This document shows, in pieces, positions 5,618 to 18,068 of a DNA stretch of 18,739 bases (positions are counted from its first letter, which is position 1; each line of letters starts with the position of its first letter). The stretch comes from Pseudobdellovibrionaceae bacterium (lineage in GTDB: Bacteria; Bdellovibrionota; Bdellovibrionia; Bdellovibrionales; Bdellovibrionaceae), in the NCBI GenBank assembly GCA_041288045.1, contig JBGGMM010000093.1:1-18739 (forward strand), in the 5' to 3' direction. Below the pieces are notes generated by a model, which was not told where the DNA came from, did not search any database, and saw only the letters and a program-made list of their open reading frames with translations. The position numbers and the translations under genes were made by a program.

Positions 5618-6289
5618 TCAATTGTCCATGGCGCCGGCGTTGATCCAGTCGCGGATAGCTTGGATTTGGGCTGAGCTGAGGGCTCCGCCTTGTGGCATTC
5701 GGCCGGCGTTGGGGACTCCGACGGTGACGGCTCGGTAAAGAAGACTGTTGTCGGCGTTTCCGGCAGTGACGGCTCTCATGACTTCGGCATAAGAATTAAA
5801 TCGCTGTTGAGAGTTTCTGGTGTTGTGGCAATTGGCGCAGATGGGGGTGAAGACTCGGTCTCGAAGCACAGAGAAGCGGGGCTCGATCATGCCGCCACCA
5901 GGAGCACCTGGGCTCGTCGGATCTTCAGCCAATCCCACAATCCACAATTTTAATATTTCAAGTTCCATTTCATCCAAGCTGGGTCGAAGCTGCGGCATCA
6001 AGCCCTGACTGGTCTGTTGATAAATGGGGGACAGCTCGGGTTCGCCGGGAACCACCAAGCGGGAGTAAATCAAATAATCCACATTGGCGATATCACTGAT
6101 GTTGCCGTTGACGTTTTCTGGATTGTGGCATTCCACGCAGTGCTTATTCAAAATCACCACAGCCGAACTTTGCAAGCTCTCTTGGCTATTGAGATCGGTT
6201 GAAGCTTCATACACCAGCTCCGACGGCTTTCCGCAATTTTGGAACAGAAGCAGAGTCAGAATGGAAAGTCCTAAAACCCAATACTTCAA
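5618..6289 (-). CDS. Dihaem c-type cytochrome lipoprotein with two planctomycete-cytochrome-C-like domains (223 aa)
   Basis: Probable TTG start at 6289 behind GAGG (ORF track starts at 6328); lipobox LLLFQNC; CVECH (6125-6139) and CANCH (5825-5839), each followed by a V(P/T)(x)G...S.(I/L)Y segment, an MPQ distal-ligand candidate and a W-I closing helix. Confidence 0.88.
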   Translation of the reverse strand: MKYWVLGLSILTLLLFQNCGKPSELVYEASTDLNSQESLQSSAVVILNKHCVECHNPENVNGNISDIANVDYLIYSRLVVPGEPELSPIYQQTSQGLMPQLRPSLDEMELEILKLWIVGLAEDPTSPGAPGGGMIEPRFSVLRDRVFTPICANCHNTRNSQQRFNSYAEVMRAVTAGNADNSLLYRAVTVGVPNAGRMPQGGALSSAQIQAIRDWINAGAMDN

Positions 6290-6297
6290 ATCACACC

Positions 6298-7962
6298 TCA
6301 GTTGTTTTGTGCCCCAGCAGCGAGCCATTCAGTGATCAAATCAATCTCATTTTGGGGTCGATATCCATCCAGTGGCATGGATTGAAGGCCTTCTAGCTCG
6401 GCCAGATCAGCCCGAATCCGCCTGTACATTTTGTGCTGCAAAAGATTGGGATTGCCAGGAACGATGATTCCCTTGCTGACCATCTCTCGGTAATCGGTCA
6501 TGTCGTAACCGCCCTGGCGCTGGACCGAGTTGTGGCATTTCACGCAGTTCACTCCTAAAATGCCTGATTTCGGATTCATCAATTGGGCAAATGTCGGAGC
6601 CGATCCTGTGTAGGCCGGATTGTAATCAGGAAGTGAAATGCGCAAAGTCTTATTTGTTCCCAGCACCGCACCCAATGGATCGCCCAGTTCCAGTCGCAAA
6701 ACCTTGTCCGGGTCATTGCGAAGATCGTCAGAAAAAATAACGTTAAAGGAAACAGTTTTTTGTGAGGGATTGATGTTCAACGAAGTCGATGTGCTGGGAT
6801 CAAACTGATAGTCCCAGTCAAAACGATTTCGCCCTTCGCCGACAATGCCAACAGCTGGGATTTCGCCACTGGGATAAGTCGAGGCGACTTGCACTGGGAC
6901 AGAAATCGGATCCACCATGTCGCCATCGACTTGCACTGTGATTGTGACTTTATTGGCAATTCCCAACTGAGTGGGCTGAATGGTCAAATTCGAAAGAGTG
7001 AATCTCACGCTCGGAGGTGGCGGTGGCGCCGGCAGGTCAATGATTTCAATATTGTTCAATTGAACAGCCAAAGTGTCACTGGCACCCAGGGGCCCGACAG
7101 AAACCAAAGATCCCGGCGAGAGCAAGGCTGTCGTTCCCATGTAAGCATTGATATCCAGATTCTTAAATGTCGTCGCATAACTGATCGGAAAACCGTTCAG
7201 CCGAAAATTCAGACCCTTGACGTGAAGACTCGAAGTTCCGACTTTCAAAGTGGGAAGAGAAAACACATAAGCTGTTTCACCAGAGGGAATCAGCATCCCG
7301 GTCACAGTCACGGAAAGCTGCACTCCAGTCAGATTGGGAATGGTTTTGCCATTGAGTGAGACCAAAGAAGAATTGAGATTCCAAGTCAGCACTCGACGAT
7401 CAAAGTTGGTGATGGTGACATTGGCTCCATTCACCCGAGTGGTTGTTGTGGTTCCATTGATTTTTGGAATCAGCTGAGAAGCAGTTTCAAATTCAGGTTT
7501 GTAAACTTCGGCCACAGGCGTGGTCGTCCCGCATTGGGCCTTGTCTCTTTGATAGGTCTGCCATTGCAAGCGAAAGGAGCTGATCACTTCGGTGTTTTGG
7601 CTCCCGGTGTAGGGTGGGTTGTGAGAGCCGCTGACTGCGTACTGTGAAATTTTCGAATATCCCACCTGCATAAATCCGGCAAAGGCCGTTTTCACATCTG
7701 GAGAAGCAAAAGTTCCCTTTCCGGGTCCATCGACATGGCAGTTTTTGCAAGTGTAGCTCAGGAAGGGATGAAAGCCCCGAGAAAAAACGGTGATGTCTTC
7801 TTCGCTGCAGATATCAGCTGCATTGTAAGTGACAATGCCACTGCTGCTAAAGCTTGTGAAATTTTCGGCAGTTTGACCTTTTCCACAATTGTTATAGAAA
7901 ACGACAAGGCCTAAGCCCAAGCCGAATACTCCTAACAAGCGGAAAAGTTTTTTTGTTCTCAC
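6298..7962 (-). CDS. Dihaem cytochrome c lipoprotein with central beta-rich and Calx-beta-like domains (554 aa)
   Basis: Probable GTG start at 7962 behind AAGGAAG; lipobox VFYNNC; CKNCH (7735-7749); poly-Pro hinge then Calx-beta-like segment (SVRF...VSFNVIFSDDLRNDPDKVLRLEL); C-terminal CVKCH (6532-6546)...IVPGNP...SMP...EWLAAGAQNN. Confidence 0.88.
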   Translation of the reverse strand: MRTKKLFRLLGVFGLGLGLVVFYNNCGKGQTAENFTSFSSSGIVTYNAADICSEEDITVFSRGFHPFLSYTCKNCHVDGPGKGTFASPDVKTAFAGFMQVGYSKISQYAVSGSHNPPYTGSQNTEVISSFRLQWQTYQRDKAQCGTTTPVAEVYKPEFETASQLIPKINGTTTTTRVNGANVTITNFDRRVLTWNLNSSLVSLNGKTIPNLTGVQLSVTVTGMLIPSGETAYVFSLPTLKVGTSSLHVKGLNFRLNGFPISYATTFKNLDINAYMGTTALLSPGSLVSVGPLGASDTLAVQLNNIEIIDLPAPPPPPSVRFTLSNLTIQPTQLGIANKVTITVQVDGDMVDPISVPVQVASTYPSGEIPAVGIVGEGRNRFDWDYQFDPSTSTSLNINPSQKTVSFNVIFSDDLRNDPDKVLRLELGDPLGAVLGTNKTLRISLPDYNPAYTGSAPTFAQLMNPKSGILGVNCVKCHNSVQRQGGYDMTDYREMVSKGIIVPGNPNLLQHKMYRRIRADLAELEGLQSMPLDGYRPQNEIDLITEWLAAGAQNN

Positions 7963-7972
7963 GTCATCTTCC

Positions 7973-9469
7973 TTAAGCAATCTTTTTCATGCGATCAATT
8001 TCAGTGGACGAAAAGGTTCGCGGCAGAACTTTATCGATTTGACTCATTTGACCATTGAAAGAAAGCCAGTTGATGAAAGCAGCAGCTGCAGCCCGATCCG
8101 GAGAAGAAATCAACGGATCGGCAGCTCCCTGGCCAGCATTCATGTAACCCAACTGGGAGCCAGCAGCGCTGGGTGCCGCCGCAGGATTAATGGCAATCAT
8201 GTACATGGCACCACGAACTCCGCCATCACTGGTCCATTCAGCGCCAGCCAAATCCGATTCAGGTGAAGTGGTAGAGCCATCTGTCGAAACAACAATGAAA
8301 GCTTTTTTGCCGAGAGCCATGGCTGTCTGTAAAATCTGGCCAATGATTCGCCCGGCAGTCAGATCGCGGCCATCACCCGTGGTGCGAGTTCCATCATGGT
8401 AATCATATCCACCCATGTTCAAATTGGCGGATCCAGCATTGCCATTCAGGGCATTGAAAACAAGCGAACTAAAAACATAATCTCTTGAATTCATCGCCGT
8501 GTTGTTTTGCAAATTCCAAATGGCGGCGACTTGAGCATTGCCTCTGGGATCGGTGTTGTTGCCGTTGGCAGAACCCACCAAGGCCGTGTTGTCTTGAGTG
8601 CGACAAGTGATCACGCTCTGGAGAAGGTTTCCACTGTTCAGACCGACGTATTTGCTAGCCTGATAGGCTGAGAGCTGTTGAATCGTTTGAAACAGAGTTC
8701 CAGCCCGCTTCGCAGCCACCAGTGGATCTAGACTTCCGCCGACGCCGAGAGCTCCGGTGATGTCTTGGTAATTCGCAACAACCAAAGGTGCCGGAGGAGG
8801 CAAAAAGGCAGGCATTTGTCCAATGCCAGTGGCCGTGTTGGAAGTTCCAAGATTGGCCAAAATTTTTCCGTTCAAGCCCATGCCGCGAGCAAGGCCCGTG
8901 ATATCAAAATTATTTGTCGAAGTGTCATCCTGTGAAGTCACTGAAATTCCCACAAACACACTGGATGAAAGAGTGGAGGCAGCGGCCGTAGCGCGAATTC
9001 CACTCAAGAGGGTGGAACCGCCAAAAAAAGGAGCGCGATTGGCAAATTCAGCATCCGCAGTGAAGGCGTTGGCTTTTCCCCAACCCATTTTTGAATAGGA
9101 GGGGAGCAGATTTCCACCTTGATCCAAAGGCAGCCAGTGAGAGGAAAGATTGGCACCACCAGAAAGATTCAAAGTGATCAGTGGCACCCAGCCACCGGTC
9201 CCGGCGGCGCAGTTGATGGCATTTTGAGCCACTGCAGATTTCGAAAGAAACATCGAAAAAAGAGGCTGACTGAGAAGTGTGCCAGTGAATGAAATCACTC
9301 CAGTCGCCAACAGATCGCGGCGGGTGAGAAGCTTTCCGCCATGGGCCTCTTGATGGGCATTGAGCTTTTGCTGATTTTCAAAAGCCTTTGCTTCCACTTC
9401 TTCTTTGCTCAACGCGGTTTCAATGAGATTCTCTTTGAGATTTTCGTTTTGTTTTTTATTTTTCCCCAT
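7973..9469 (-). CDS. Tat-exported DUF1501-like protein (498 aa)
   Basis: Twin-arginine motif LTRRDLL then a hydrophobic stretch and AVA cleavage-like site; ITLNLSGGAN, GGYDYHDG (compare GGWDTH of DUF1501 proteins) and IVVSTDG motifs; RBS AAGGGG. Confidence 0.75.
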   Translation of the reverse strand: MGKNKKQNENLKENLIETALSKEEVEAKAFENQQKLNAHQEAHGGKLLTRRDLLATGVISFTGTLLSQPLFSMFLSKSAVAQNAINCAAGTGGWVPLITLNLSGGANLSSHWLPLDQGGNLLPSYSKMGWGKANAFTADAEFANRAPFFGGSTLLSGIRATAAASTLSSSVFVGISVTSQDDTSTNNFDITGLARGMGLNGKILANLGTSNTATGIGQMPAFLPPPAPLVVANYQDITGALGVGGSLDPLVAAKRAGTLFQTIQQLSAYQASKYVGLNSGNLLQSVITCRTQDNTALVGSANGNNTDPRGNAQVAAIWNLQNNTAMNSRDYVFSSLVFNALNGNAGSANLNMGGYDYHDGTRTTGDGRDLTAGRIIGQILQTAMALGKKAFIVVSTDGSTTSPESDLAGAEWTSDGGVRGAMYMIAINPAAAPSAAGSQLGYMNAGQGAADPLISSPDRAAAAAFINWLSFNGQMSQIDKVLPRTFSSTEIDRMKKIA

Positions 9470-9490
9470 GGAACTAACCCCTTTTCAATC

Positions 9491-10129
9491 TTAAAGCACC
9501 AATGTGTCCAAAGACGCCAACATGGATGTGCACATAAAAAGTGCTGCATCATGAGCCGTATTGGCCGCATTGGCATTGCCGAAAGACGAGTGAAGTGCGC
9601 CTAAAACAATATCGGCCTCTGCTGAATCCGCATCCCGTGACCAACAAGATCTGGAGATTCGAGACAGAACGTCGCGAAGAGCTGTGTCCGCTGGGAGAGT
9701 GGTGGATGTCAGATTGTAGCCGATGAAAATTCTGGGAGTTCCAGATCTTTCTGCATCAATCAGATCTCTGCAAACTTCACCAGCAATCGAAGCTGAGGCC
9801 ATGAGCATCGGAGCAGTCACAGTTTTCACTGCTCCTGTTTCGGACACAGTTCCGGCTTTTGCCGCGTACATTTGCAAAGTTCGATCCGAAGGAAGGCCTG
9901 ATCCCAGGCAAGTGGTGTAATGATCTAGAATCTGCTTGGAATAGACCGTCGCCACAGTTTTGGTATCCGGAAGCAGAGTGGGATCATCTTCACTCGCTAA
10001 AGAGAATTCGCCTCCGACTGATTTCATGTCCACCAGTTCCCAGCGCCCGCAGCCTTGTCCGAGACCCAGAATGATCAAAGCGCCAGAAGCCAGAGCCGCT
10101 GTGAGTCTGACAATTGTTTTCTTTGTCAT
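9491..10129 (-). CDS. Cys-containing helical lipoprotein of unknown function (212 aa)
   Basis: ATG at 10129 behind GGAGA, overlapping the upstream stop (ATGA); lipobox LGQGC; four further Cys (TTCL, EVCR, RSCW, FMCT). Confidence 0.85.
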   Translation of the reverse strand: MTKKTIVRLTAALASGALIILGLGQGCGRWELVDMKSVGGEFSLASEDDPTLLPDTKTVATVYSKQILDHYTTCLGSGLPSDRTLQMYAAKAGTVSETGAVKTVTAPMLMASASIAGEVCRDLIDAERSGTPRIFIGYNLTSTTLPADTALRDVLSRISRSCWSRDADSAEADIVLGALHSSFGNANAANTAHDAALFMCTSMLASLDTLVL

Positions 10130-12393
10130 CGCAATTCTCCCAGGCAATTGGTGGTGGTGACGATTTTCTTAAAGAGATAATCCAATTTGTACTGTCCGTC
10201 GGTTTCAAATTCTTTGGCGGCCGTGGTGATCAGCGATTGATCAAAGCTCTGCGGTTCGCGTTTGCAAACACTGGCAAAAACTCTCTGAGCCAAACACTTT
10301 GAGTACTGAGCGGATTCGGAAACCATGCGACCGAACTCTTTCACTCCTCGGCCAGCCGTTGGGCCTCTCCAGCCAAAATAGCCCATGCCCCAAGTGTCAA
10401 TGGTGGCATTTTGAAATGAGTTGTCAGTGATCACTCGGCCATTGGGAAAGACCTGCTCATTGTGATTCATCTTGGTCGCTACAAAAGAAACGTTTCCGAG
10501 ATTTGGCAGATTGGTCAGTGCCGGATCATTGTTTTTAAGACCTGCCAACATTCCCATGGAAGTGTCTTCGTTATTGGCGTTGGCAGGAAGCCTTGGCACC
10601 ATGAACGAATGCTTGGCAAATCCATTTGAAAAAGTGAAGTAGGCAAAGGCCCCTCGCAGCGGATCCATTTGCGAATGGCAAGACCTGCAGTTGGAAGTGA
10701 ATTTCGTGTGGCTGCCGCCAGGGAAGCGATCCACATCACGACCAATCATGGCGTCACTGCCCGAAGAATTGGACCAGCGATCAATCGGAGTGCAAAGAAA
10801 TTCGCGGAAAGTGTATTCGACAAGCCGTCGGTTGGTTCCAGCCACAGCATGTGCGGCCATAAAAGCTCTTGAAGTCAGAAGGCCGGCCGGGTCGGGATGG
10901 GCAACATCGACAGTGCCGTTAAAGACCCTTTGGCCGTCTTTTCGAACCAACACTTTGGCAAGATCAAAGCCCCCAGCTTGCAAAGATTCATAGTGACGAT
11001 TGGATGTGAGCAGATCGCGCACAGCATGCGAAGGGACGGCCGCTTTGGTTGGATCGGCCATATAAAAGTAGTTTCCAGTGAGAAGTGTTCTGGCGTCCAA
11101 TTTGTCTCTGACAGCGCCAATCATGGTGGCTGTGAAATCATTGAGAGAAGTCGAAATCGTCTCTTCACGGGTTGACATTTTCGCTGCCATATCGCGAACA
11201 GTGATATTGAGAAATCCCGGATTTTGAGTGGCAATTCCTGCAGCCGCAAAAGAATTTCCCTGATCAATCAATTCAGCCATTTGTTGAATGACTGGATCGG
11301 TGACCGGAGTTCGAAGCCCGACAATGCGCTCATAAATTGTCTGTGCCTGCTGCATTGAAGTTGTGATGCGTGAATTGATATCAATCGAAAGAAGATTCGG
11401 CGGCACCAGGCGAGGGGCGCCAGAGCCTAGGATTTCGGCTTCAGTCAAAGCCCGACAGTAAATGGCCATCATATAGATTTTTCCCACCCAGGGCCAGTGA
11501 CGGCTGTGCTTGGAGGCGCTTTCCCCACCAGCTGTGGGCTTTGAAATATCCAAGAGTCCGCTGGGCTCATTGCCGATGGCCAGGCGCATATCCAAGGCTC
11601 TGGTTACAGATCCCGAAGAATCGTCTGGAGTGTCATAAGTGACATTGGTGCCGGAAGAATGCCAGTTGGAAAAATTGCCGTTAAAGCCATCATTCGCCAC
11701 AAAGGGGCCTGTGTCATTGCCATTTTCATCCGAGTTGTAAAGTCGGGCTACGCCGCCAGCTGTGCGTACCAGGTAGACGTGTTGTTTTTTTCCAAGCAGG
11801 AAATTTTCTCTCGGCGAGAGGAGGTAATTCACATAATCACCATTGCGGTTCTCTAAGTTATTGGAGTTTCCAGTGGTGCGAGTGGTGCCGCGGTAAGCGT
11901 CTCCCATATTGTAAAACTGCTGCAATGAAAAATTGTGGAATTCTTTAAAGTAAGTATCGGCCAAAGAGACAAAGCGAAGCCCCTGCTTGAAAGTTCCAGC
12001 TGCCAGGTCGTCATCTTCGTGATTGGCCAACTTTTCAGAAGGTGTTCGGCTTTCCACCCACATTTCAATCGTCATGGCATTGGAGGCTTTGCAGGCATTG
12101 ATGATCTTATCTGCTGAAGCCACCGAGCGGATGATATTGGGCTCAACAATTTCTAAATGGTCAGCTTGGATGTTGTAAAGAGCATTGGGTCTTAAGATTT
12201 GCAAATTCAGAGGATTCGGTGCCAGATCCCGGATGATTCCTGTAGCCGCTTCAATATTGGCTGGTTGAAAAACGTAGAGAGAAATCGCCGAATCACGAGT
12301 CGACCCGTTGCCATTTGAATCCAATGCCAAAGCGGCGCTGGGGACTGTCACTGTCAGACAAAATGTCAGAAGCCTTTGAAATCTTGGCATCAT
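10126..12393 (-). CDS. Secreted LamG-like + monohaem DUF1588/DUF1585-like protein (755 aa)
   Basis: Signal peptide ending AALA; N-terminal LamG-like motifs (MTIEMWV; WVGKIYMMAIYCRALTEAEI); C-terminal half has AGLLTSRAF...NRR...FREFLC...CRSCHSQMDPL (CxxCH at 10675-10689) and GVKEFGRMV...CLAQRVF...LFKKIV, resembling PSCyt3/DUF1588 and DUF1585. Confidence 0.82.
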   Translation of the reverse strand: MMPRFQRLLTFCLTVTVPSAALALDSNGNGSTRDSAISLYVFQPANIEAATGIIRDLAPNPLNLQILRPNALYNIQADHLEIVEPNIIRSVASADKIINACKASNAMTIEMWVESRTPSEKLANHEDDDLAAGTFKQGLRFVSLADTYFKEFHNFSLQQFYNMGDAYRGTTRTTGNSNNLENRNGDYVNYLLSPRENFLLGKKQHVYLVRTAGGVARLYNSDENGNDTGPFVANDGFNGNFSNWHSSGTNVTYDTPDDSSGSVTRALDMRLAIGNEPSGLLDISKPTAGGESASKHSRHWPWVGKIYMMAIYCRALTEAEILGSGAPRLVPPNLLSIDINSRITTSMQQAQTIYERIVGLRTPVTDPVIQQMAELIDQGNSFAAAGIATQNPGFLNITVRDMAAKMSTREETISTSLNDFTATMIGAVRDKLDARTLLTGNYFYMADPTKAAVPSHAVRDLLTSNRHYESLQAGGFDLAKVLVRKDGQRVFNGTVDVAHPDPAGLLTSRAFMAAHAVAGTNRRLVEYTFREFLCTPIDRWSNSSGSDAMIGRDVDRFPGGSHTKFTSNCRSCHSQMDPLRGAFAYFTFSNGFAKHSFMVPRLPANANNEDTSMGMLAGLKNNDPALTNLPNLGNVSFVATKMNHNEQVFPNGRVITDNSFQNATIDTWGMGYFGWRGPTAGRGVKEFGRMVSESAQYSKCLAQRVFASVCKREPQSFDQSLITTAAKEFETDGQYKLDYLFKKIVTTTNCLGELR

Positions 12394-17709: not shown

Positions 17710-17796
17710 CAGATTTTTTGAGCTTGCCCCAGCCCGTGCCGAACTCCGGACTCATTTTCATTCAACAAATTCCAGCGTGGGTTTAAATCAGGTCTT

Positions 17797-17830
17797 AAAA
17801 ATGCAAATGGCAGGTTTTTGGTCCTGCCAT
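17797..17830 (-). terminator. Candidate intrinsic terminator of a minus-strand antisense RNA
   Basis: Minus strand ATGGCAGG-ACCAAAAA-CCTGCCAT (perfect 8-bp stem, arms 17807-17814 and 17823-17830) followed by TTGCATTTTT. Confidence 0.55.
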
Positions 17831-17886
17831 CTGTGACTTTGGAAAGTCGCCTCCTCTAACCAGGAGGTGTTTATGTCCAACCGACA
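17797..17886 (-). ncRNA. Putative cis-antisense antitoxin RNA (~85-90 nt) covering the SD and 5' UTR of the 33-aa ORF
   Basis: Bounded by a sigma28-like promoter (17893-17919) and the terminator hairpin; contains three consecutive hairpins. Ends are inferred. Confidence 0.45.
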
Positions 17887-17974
17887 TAAACCTTATCGGA
17901 AGATTCTGGGAGTGCTTGAGAGGATTTTAAGGCTTTTACTTTTGATCCTCCGCATTCTCAAAGAACTGATCTAG
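17873..17974 (+). CDS. 33-aa cationic amphipathic peptide, candidate type I toxin (MSNRHKPYRKILGVLERILRLLLLILRILKELI)
   Basis: Below the ORF-track length cut-off. Strong SD AGGAGGT 4 nt before ATG; 8 K/R versus 2 E; 16 of the last 23 residues are L/I/V, with polar residues at helical spacing. Confidence 0.7.
   Translation: MSNRHKPYRKILGVLERILRLLLLILRILKELI
17893..17919 (-). promoter_or_regulatory. Sigma28 (FliA)-type promoter inside and antisense to the 33-aa ORF
   Basis: Minus strand TCAA-GCACTCCCAGAATCT-TCCGATAA: exact 15-nt spacer, 3/4 and 7/8 matches to TAAA-N15-GCCGATAA. Confidence 0.6.
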
Positions 17975-18068
17975 AATTTTTGGAAGTCAGGGCTTAATGA
18001 GGTTGTAACACGAGGCTTAAAACCTTGGAGGTTTCAACGGATTTGAGAAGATGGTAGGACCACCTTGA

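Follow-up and report, generated by a model that had tools for sequence, protein, structure and literature searches.

Fold-back inhibition of the toxin mRNA and tandem repeats are known traits of the Hok/Sok, Ldr/Rdl and Ibs/Sib group of toxin-antitoxin (TA) systems of type I. In the available parts of the literature, type I systems are defined by an mRNA of 150-400 nt coding for a protein of 20-60 aa and by an antisense RNA of 60-200 nt, which lies 5' of the ORF in Hok/Sok and Ldr/Rdl, spans the whole ORF in the case of Sib and, in the case of IstR, does not overlap the tisB mRNA (PMC8594479). For the AapA/IsoA systems of Helicobacter pylori, the published excerpts describe peptides of about 30 aa encoded in several chromosomal copies, an antisense RNA that lies wholly within the mRNA, over the start of the ORF, and is transcribed from a promoter in the coding sequence, and a toxin mRNA that combines a 5'-3' long-distance interaction with a nascent hairpin sequestering the Shine-Dalgarno (SD) motif and is activated by 3' processing (PMC5416894, PMC6733600, PMC8594479); the -10 boxes of aapA1 and IsoA1 are given as TAAAAT and TATAAT (PMC5416894). 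In Campylobacter, the small RNAs CjNC1 and CjNC4 are, in the portion of the report available, σ28-dependent and predicted to repress σ54-dependent mRNAs at the 5'UTR, acting in trans on flagellar genes (PMC4626219). With regard to Bdellovibrio, a 2010 survey counts, in its accessible text, no type I system for B. bacteriovorus HD100 and names a single candidate there, Bd3114, of 54 aa (PMC2887945), and the available portion of the T1TAdb paper does not mention the genus.

The locus presented here belongs to a stretch of 18,739 nt from a Pseudobdellovibrionaceae contig, here termed the window. Between a divergent gene of 489 aa and a convergent lactonase-like gene, a folded region encloses a 33-codon ORF that is preceded by AGGAGGT (Table 1). 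The original prediction had compared this arrangement with the structured mRNAs of type I TA systems, a likeness that the present analysis supports. Elsewhere in the window, the minus-strand genes that follow one another at 5618-12393 carry CxxCH haem motifs, have starts like those of lipoproteins and lie beside a twin-arginine-like protein, and an ORF with long Gly/Ser/Asn/Thr tandem repeats (1-628) runs off the contig end.

Table 1. Coordinates, strand and supporting evidence of the observed and predicted features of the module in the window.
Feature	Position	Strand	Evidence
Putative type I toxin ORF; 33-aa cationic (+6) amphipathic single-helix peptide	17873..17974	+	Helix model, alignment
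Predicted σ54-type -24/-12 promoter: GG 17791-92, 10-nt spacer, GC 17803-04; +1 ~17816	17791..17804	+	Spacing counts
Predicted mRNA, ~248 nt, closed by 5'-3' helix	17816..18063	+	z=-5.59; helix start near predicted +1
Terminal long-distance helix, 5' arm	17819..17832	+	Pairing, covariation
Terminal long-distance helix, 3' arm	18049..18062	+	Pairing, covariation, wobble count
Segment with two fates: local hairpin or pairing with 17976-17989	17834..17848	+	Folding
Post-stop partner of 17834-17847	17976..17989	+	Folding
Anti-SD (17849-55)/SD (17862-68) hairpin	17849..17868	+	P=0.96
GGAGGT, possible anti-anti-SD, weak in window copy	18027..18032	+	P=0.01; family-level pairing
Predicted antisense RNA, ~89 nt, over first 4-5 codons, AUG, SD and whole 5'UTR	17885 to ~17797	-	Start-site, promoter and terminator signals
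Predicted FliA/σ28 promoter inside ORF: -35 TCAAG (17919-17915), N15, -10 TCCGATAA (17900-17893)	17893..17919	-	Conserved motifs
Intrinsic terminator of predicted antisense RNA: hairpin 17833-17804 and U-rich tail	17797..17833	-	Terminator scan, wobble count

The window peptide has a charge of +6 and a hydrophobic moment of 0.77, and is modelled as a single helix over residues 6-32 (predicted structure, pLDDT 83.7). Among the 139 copies analyzed, family peptides are 33-42 aa long, with a median length of 39 and a median charge of +5, and an alignment of 81 peptides reveals a conserved ORF in which an Arg is the sole invariant residue besides Met. By its physico-chemical likeness the peptide may be toxic, and it would most likely harm the inner membrane. 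The family has no match in Pfam, NCBIfam or the PDB sequences and none among the PHROGs families, where one member reached 0.001; phages and plasmids searched with a single peptide gave no match either, and Rfam returned 0 matches for the window and four chance matches, all below threshold, for 10 homologous loci. Language-model features yielded only leads below 0.9, the level set by the tool; the TisB cluster (PF13939), likewise a short amphipathic helix, ranks third at 0.83, a value of low recognition that, with no Pfam match beside it, is a lead only. The family profile finds at least 335 protein clusters at 50% identity, and among the 10 members listed for nine of these the one that bears a name is a 'hypothetical protein'. 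The gene, unannotated and often present in several copies, would thus encode a small membrane peptide in predatory bacteria of the Bdellovibrio type, and it resembles a toxin restrained by an antisense RNA.

The genome of the window (G000, 83% complete) also holds a full paralogue that is 89% identical (C60), a copy of the 5' half (C46) and a decayed fragment (C107). The full paralogue has a tRNA-Leu gene at a distance of about 260 nt; in the 5'-half copy (11946-12085) promoter and 5'UTR are intact and the sequence breaks off in the middle of the ORF, and the fragment (254-356) is a remnant of the ORF. A search with the single peptide matched 23 of the 150 genomes of the family, and a profile search at E<=1e-3 matched 67 of the 251 genomes of the class, the largest number of matches in one genome being 14. 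Across the phylum, the profile matched 25 of 301 genomes (E<=1e-5), all of them from four families of the window's order, and the module was found only in this order. Named collections were covered by one DNA pattern scan, built of non-coding motifs only, which matched 68 named loci; of the 42 whose titles point to Bdellovibrionota, 38 encode the peptide (one of them weak and later dropped), as do 0 of the remaining 26, and a metagenome scan with the pattern gave 48 loci, with the peptide in 0. B. bacteriovorus YOA24 is among the named carriers, as are Bdellovibrio sp. HCB strains. For the family set, 60 regions were fetched around the better profile matches, not around all matches; 115 ORFs were extracted, 113 after collapsing at 97%, and the 26 new ORFs contributed by the DNA pattern bring the total to 139.

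Copy number varies from 0 to 14, tandem arrays and decayed copies occur, and in several complete genomes within the genus the profile finds no copy; this multi-copy, patchy distribution with filled and empty sites resembles that of type I loci. For the exact locus of the window, no orthologous flank was found in seven genomes of the same genus that encode the lactonase-like protein, and hence no empty site. A syntenic copy with all motifs lies near 12 kb in five complete genomes (L293-L297), suggesting a stable inherited locus. In L277 (G114), a deletion of about 116 nt takes the end of the ORF and most of the 3'UTR, and both promoter motifs remain. Near position 1500 of L008 and L012, from the same genus, small minus-strand ORFs share the SD context and the first six codons with the window peptide, have a different hydrophobic tail and flanking hairpins, and are left unscored by the family profile; they are possibly a sister family. 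Among contigs assembled from RNA runs at locus L196 of B. bacteriovorus YOA24, one run provides a 32-kb contig across the whole stretch, which may be DNA, and three contigs end at the edge of the module.

All the helices listed in the original prediction are present: the terminal helix (17819-32/18049-62) pairs at 14 of 14 positions with one G-U, 17807-14/17823-30 at 8 of 8, 17834-47/17976-89 at 13 of 14 with three G-U, 17835-40/17843-48 at 6 of 6 and 17849-54/18027-32 at 6 of 6, and, inside the ORF, 17907-15/17952-60 pairs at 9 of 9 with two G-U and 17920-26/17944-50 at 7 of 7. Folding of 17800-18065 was better than that of dinucleotide-shuffled sequences on both strands (z=-4.79 on the plus and z=-3.93 on the minus strand; 0/200 shuffles each), as anticipated, and that of 17816-18063 was also equalled by 0/200 shuffles (z=-5.59). 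The terminal helix has a pairing probability of 1.0 in the full-length RNA. Compared with the window, the C60 paralogue is altered on both sides at two of the 14 terminal pairs, and the G-U has become G-C. In an alignment of 30 sequences from one clade, 96.9% of the cells pair, against 37-47% in slid controls, over which the helix holds an advantage in that the structure was derived from the same alignment; 7 of the 14 pairs show two-sided changes (34 cells versus 10.9 after shuffling, 0/500). Among the 121 of 139 members that have an anchor and enough 3' flank, 87 reach a helix score of at least 13, as opposed to 26 of 605 shuffles, and wobbles across the family are G-T in 68 cases and A-C in 10. 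The terminal helix thus forms in RNA, on the plus strand, and both the long-distance pairing around the small ORF and its assignment to RNA, which had been predicted from the window copy alone, hold for the family.

The two pairings proposed for 17834-17847 both occur in the computed folds, in unequal measure: in the full-length RNA the local hairpin has a probability of 0.71 and the pairing with the segment after the stop codon one of 0.29; the latter (taken at 17837-17986) rises to 0.89-0.99 once the RNA is cut back to 18048 or to 17992. Both segments are identical in the C60 copy, and the local hairpin covaries in a six-sequence alignment. In the same region, three segments of 18 nt (17781-17798, 17980-17997 and 18003-18020) are loose repeats with GG(T/G)CTTAA at their end, one of which overlaps the predicted promoter, and a related motif, GG.CT.AAA..CC, occurs in 41 of the 139 3'UTRs.

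The local hairpin at the 5' end shows the opposite wobble bias to the terminal helix, with A-C in 37 cases and G-T in 6 (a strand-neutral count), and its minus-strand version is the more stable in 91 of 121 members; when both are present, the long helix wins over it. On this comparison of sequences, by which the module, its ORF, its helices, the strand of each hairpin and both promoter motifs are established, the local hairpin is one that acts on the minus strand, and the combination of minus-strand wobbles, a U-rich tail and a terminator prediction implies an antisense transcript. The original reading of the ATGGCAGG hairpin as a metastable structure of the mRNA is contradicted by these wobbles, by the U-tract on the minus strand and by the position of its left arm, upstream of the predicted mRNA start. 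The terminator hairpin overlaps the -12 box of the predicted mRNA promoter, and the A-tract, used below as an anchor, may double as the U-tail of the antisense RNA.

The hallmark dinucleotides of σ54 promoters are GG at -24 and GC at -12. When the family is anchored on the A-tract alone (115 of 137 members anchored), a GC is found in 108 of 115 and a GG exactly 10 nt earlier in 88 of 115; GG precedes GC by 10 nt in 73 of 97 members, with 0-7 at other spacings, and GG-N10-GC recurs in 19 of 26 in the second set. Four of 16 members without the anchor still present GG-N10-GC, separated from the ATG by 85-88 nt. Among pattern loci without the peptide GG occurs in 5 of 31, three of which are Bdellovibrionota, and among the non-Bdellovibrionota pattern matches in 2 of 26. 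Upstream regions of G000 show a peak of TGGCA..TGC at spacer 10 (22 versus 3-10), and rpoN is present in 145 of the 150 family genomes; it was not found in G000, which is 83% complete. Given that σ54 binds at -24/-12, as stated in the accessible part of a published account (PMC11704786), the mRNA is predicted to start at 17816, in coincidence with the point where the long helix begins; in 58 of the 87 members with a strong helix, the helix begins at +1 to +4 of the predicted start, 38 of them at +2. It is likely that the mRNA promoter is of the σ54 type; the -24 box of the window is non-canonical (GGTCTT, not GGCAY), both other copies with a full 5' end in G000 (C60 and C46) carry AG in place of GG, and no conserved upstream enhancer was seen in the family, so that the assignment is likely and not certain. 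The copies at L049, L299 and L302 are devoid of the GG-N10-GC box, and each is preceded by the same GC-rich element of about 45 nt, perhaps another promoter or an RNA.

Inside the ORF, on the opposite strand, the family shows the profile (G)CCGA(T/A)A, preceded at a distance of 16 nt by (C/T)T(T/C)A(A/G). In the available portion of the transcription map of B. bacteriovorus, FliA is the regulator of the attack phase, its consensus is TTAAG-N16-CCGATA (92 of 140 mapped promoters) and transcription usually starts 9 nt after CCGATA (PMC3627812); counted by eye, the mapped promoters of Bd2102, Bd2109 and Bd0688 are of the N15 type (PMC3627812). The invariant Arg codon is CGN in 139 of 139 members and never CGC, with AGR used in 141 of 283 other Arg codons, and the -35 codon carries a synonymous T in 93 of 107, among N-terminal codons that are T-rich in general, as are many third positions. 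At least 6 of 8 positions match GCCGATAA, the FliA -10 profile, in 94 of 139 members, and -35 matches to T[TAC]AAG across the 139 lie at N15 in 76 cases and at N16 in 51, with 0-8 at 13, 14 and 17-19 and with 19 at N12. The predominant family spacer, N15, is one base below the commonest; in upstream regions of G000, a genome in which fliA is present, the FliA motif peaks at N16 (23) and N15 (14), with 4-7 elsewhere. Spacing counts for FliA and σ54 over the whole genome are flat, and the peaks appear only within upstream regions. An N16 spacing with TTAAG or TCAAG would create an in-frame stop codon in the peptide gene. A purine occupies the predicted antisense +1 in 129 of 139 members and is preceded by T in 102 of 139, and a pyrimidine-purine step occurs there in 112 of 139, as opposed to 11-34 at neighbouring codons; the predicted antisense RNAs are 85-115 nt long across the family. 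Counts over the family are non-independent and inflated by the kinship of its members, and on 55 peptides less than 50% identical the signals are GG in 34 of 47, CGN in 55 of 55 and a purine at +1 in 53 of 55. While the motif itself is a result of sequence comparison, its assignment to FliA/σ28 is one that we infer. Two other codons, +12 and +13 after the invariant Arg, show across the family a strong third-position bias (A in 59 of 80 and T in 82 of 100) that neither promoter explains. None of the eight published attack-phase sRNAs, inspected by eye in the available figures, fits the predicted antisense layout (PMC3627812); in four of them, APsRNA2, 5, 6 and 7 (PMC3627812, Fig S1), inspection by eye shows an ATG behind an SD, so that they may code for small proteins.

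With regard to translation, the SD is computed to spend 84-86% of the time paired to the 5'UTR in nascent forms and 48% in full-length RNAs (34 members, drawn from 55). The original prediction envisaged 3' trimming as the activating step, and equilibrium folding, which leaves trimming in vivo possible, indicates the reverse: in 41 of 53 members the SD is cheaper to open in the full-length RNA than after removal of 45 nt from the 3' end, and in 44 of 53 cheaper than with the inner 3' segment shuffled (median costs of 5.9, 7.2 and 7.3 kcal/mol for full, trimmed and shuffled forms). In the window, opening the SD core costs 11.6 kcal/mol in the nascent, 6.1 in the full-length and 7.2 in the trimmed RNA, and in all 3' truncations tried the ribosome-binding site stays closed (11-19 kcal/mol). 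Even at full length the SD is still costly to open, as the family median indicates. The role of GGAGGT as an anti-anti-SD, also proposed beforehand, finds support at the level of the family, where in 72 of 75 cases the 3'UTR of the same member is a better partner for the inner 5'UTR than those of other members, and is weak in the window copy, where pairing of the anti-SD with GGAGGT has P=0.01 and the constrained ensemble lies about 3 kcal/mol above the free one. This family-level pairing and the opening costs together favour activity of the full-length rather than of the trimmed RNA. A second anti-SD just after the stop codon was considered and rejected as a general feature, being seen in one clade and not family-wide (better than non-cognate in 32 of 75).

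These data bear on several other explanations of the locus. One of them, which takes up the original prediction, is that a housekeeping promoter of the σ70 type, with a -10 like xAAAAT, starts the mRNA at about 17807-09, that the metastable 5' hairpin is then replaced by the long helix and that 3' trimming activates the RNA, as for hok and aapA. The TAAAAT box and the activation by processing reported for aapA1 in the available text (PMC5416894) speak for this proposal, as do a start 7 nt after AAAAT that would sit at the foot of the hairpin and the dominance of the long helix over the hairpin; against it, the hairpin wobbles favour the minus strand 37 to 6, the hexamer begins with T in only 26% of members, no conserved -35 signal was found (15 of 108, versus 11-14 at control offsets), the GG at a fixed distance finds no explanation in it, the long helix ends at +2/+3 of the σ54 start and trimming raises the opening cost of the SD, which together make it unlikely. 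A miniature transposable element (MITE) with 14-bp terminal inverted repeats at 17819-18062, which the original prediction itself named as the alternative, would account for multiple copies, a patchy distribution and a right boundary that coincides with a repeat arm; however, copies share sequence to about 21 nt left of the left repeat, the repeat varies with compensatory and G-U changes, the ORF is conserved, and the empty site of a related genus lacks the promoter as well and shows no clear target duplication (one 6-nt match), so that we regard a MITE as extremely improbable. It could also be argued that there is no antisense RNA and that the motifs reflect mRNA folding and peptide constraints in a cis-regulated small gene. 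A CGA near the AUG, present in 91 of 139 members, can pair with TCGG, and RNA pairing can therefore also constrain TCGG, and in the window the LE/LK codons pair inside the ORF; yet a terminator on the minus strand with minus-strand wobbles needs a minus-strand transcript, TCG is kept, with its CG invariant, in the 48 of 139 members that have no CGA partner near the AUG, and the pyrimidine-purine step at the predicted +1 stands well above neighbouring codons, so that this explanation has little probability.

A further reading retains the same wiring and takes the peptide to be a membrane-active effector of the predator life cycle and not a self-toxin, produced during a σ54 window at a late point of intraperiplasmic growth for the breakdown of the prey membrane, septation or exit, and silenced by the FliA antisense RNA in the attack phase. 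The restriction of the module to the window's order, the syntenic copy near 12 kb in five complete genomes, the strongly amphipathic and cationic peptide and the published role of FliA in the attack phase are all congruent with such an effector. On the other hand, the profile finds no copy in several complete genomes within the genus, a selfish TA module fits the copy numbers of 0-14, the tandem arrays and the decay of copies, and neither a signal peptide nor an export gene was seen beside the module, and we consider an effector role rather unlikely on balance. Our preferred reading, held with moderate confidence, is that of a type I TA-like family of the Bdellovibrionales, similar to AapA/IsoA and wired as σ54 versus σ28.

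The comparison with described systems is in line with this preferred reading. The predicted mRNA of 248 nt, the ends of which are predicted, and the 33-aa peptide fall within the size definition of type I systems, and computed folding and covariation provide the cis-sequestered SD and the 5'-3' interaction by which such systems are recognized. The resemblance to AapA/IsoA extends to peptide length, chromosomal copies, a predicted antisense RNA wholly within the mRNA over the ORF start, an antisense promoter in the coding sequence and the coupling of a long-distance interaction to a nascent SD-sequestering hairpin. The module differs in phylum, in the lack of any Rfam, Pfam, NCBIfam or PDB match and in its σ54- and FliA-type motifs; the in silico trend is opposite to activation by 3' processing, and the opening of the ribosome-binding site by 3' truncation that is known from AapA/IsoA and Hok/Sok was not reproduced in silico. 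On the sequence evidence, the module is one that would work like the AapA/IsoA class and is not a member of that family. From Hok/Sok, Ldr/Rdl and Ibs/Sib it is set apart by an antisense RNA predicted to cover only the 5'UTR and the first codons, by the absence of a family match and by no leader ORF having been seen, and from TisB by the overlap of the two predicted RNAs. The pairing of a σ28-dependent RNA with the 5'UTR of a σ54-dependent mRNA recalls CjNC1 and CjNC4, although here the antisense RNA would be encoded in cis, against a small peptide ORF. In the literature covered, which includes few subscription papers and leaves aside the T1TAdb data, no description of the module was found. 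We conclude that it is a real, order-wide and, on this coverage, undescribed peptide module under predicted antisense control.

A mechanism can be outlined in which the sigma assignments, the transcript ends, the participation of RNase III, the toxicity and the timing are inferred. RNA polymerase with σ54 would start an mRNA of about 250 nt near 17816, and in the nascent RNA the SD would at once be locked by the 5' anti-SD hairpin. The completed 3' end would then pair onto the first nucleotides, protecting both ends of the mRNA, and in most members it would also draw the anti-SD away, rendering the finished RNA more translatable. The product would be the cationic amphipathic helix of 33 aa, most likely damaging the inner membrane. 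From the FliA (σ28) promoter inside the ORF, an antisense RNA of about 89 nt would cover the AUG, the SD and the 5'UTR and block translation, and the duplex would go to RNase III. The peptide would escape when FliA output drops or when σ54 output leads. In B. bacteriovorus, FliA is the driver of the attack phase, and the antitoxin should therefore be linked to that phase.

On a more speculative note, we put forward as a tentative possibility that these order-wide, membrane-active peptide genes are timed by the flagellar sigma cascade, with a self-closing σ54 mRNA that becomes translatable only once complete, a FliA antisense RNA and a peptide produced at one set point in the predatory cycle, be it the exit from prey or the culling of cells that fail to enter the attack phase. 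The family also provides short peptides of cationic amphipathic character as a natural series, and the module is testable in cultured carriers. If true, a toxin and antitoxin pair set as σ54 versus σ28 would couple a TA module with a developmental switch, and would offer a direct test of what a chromosomal type I locus does.
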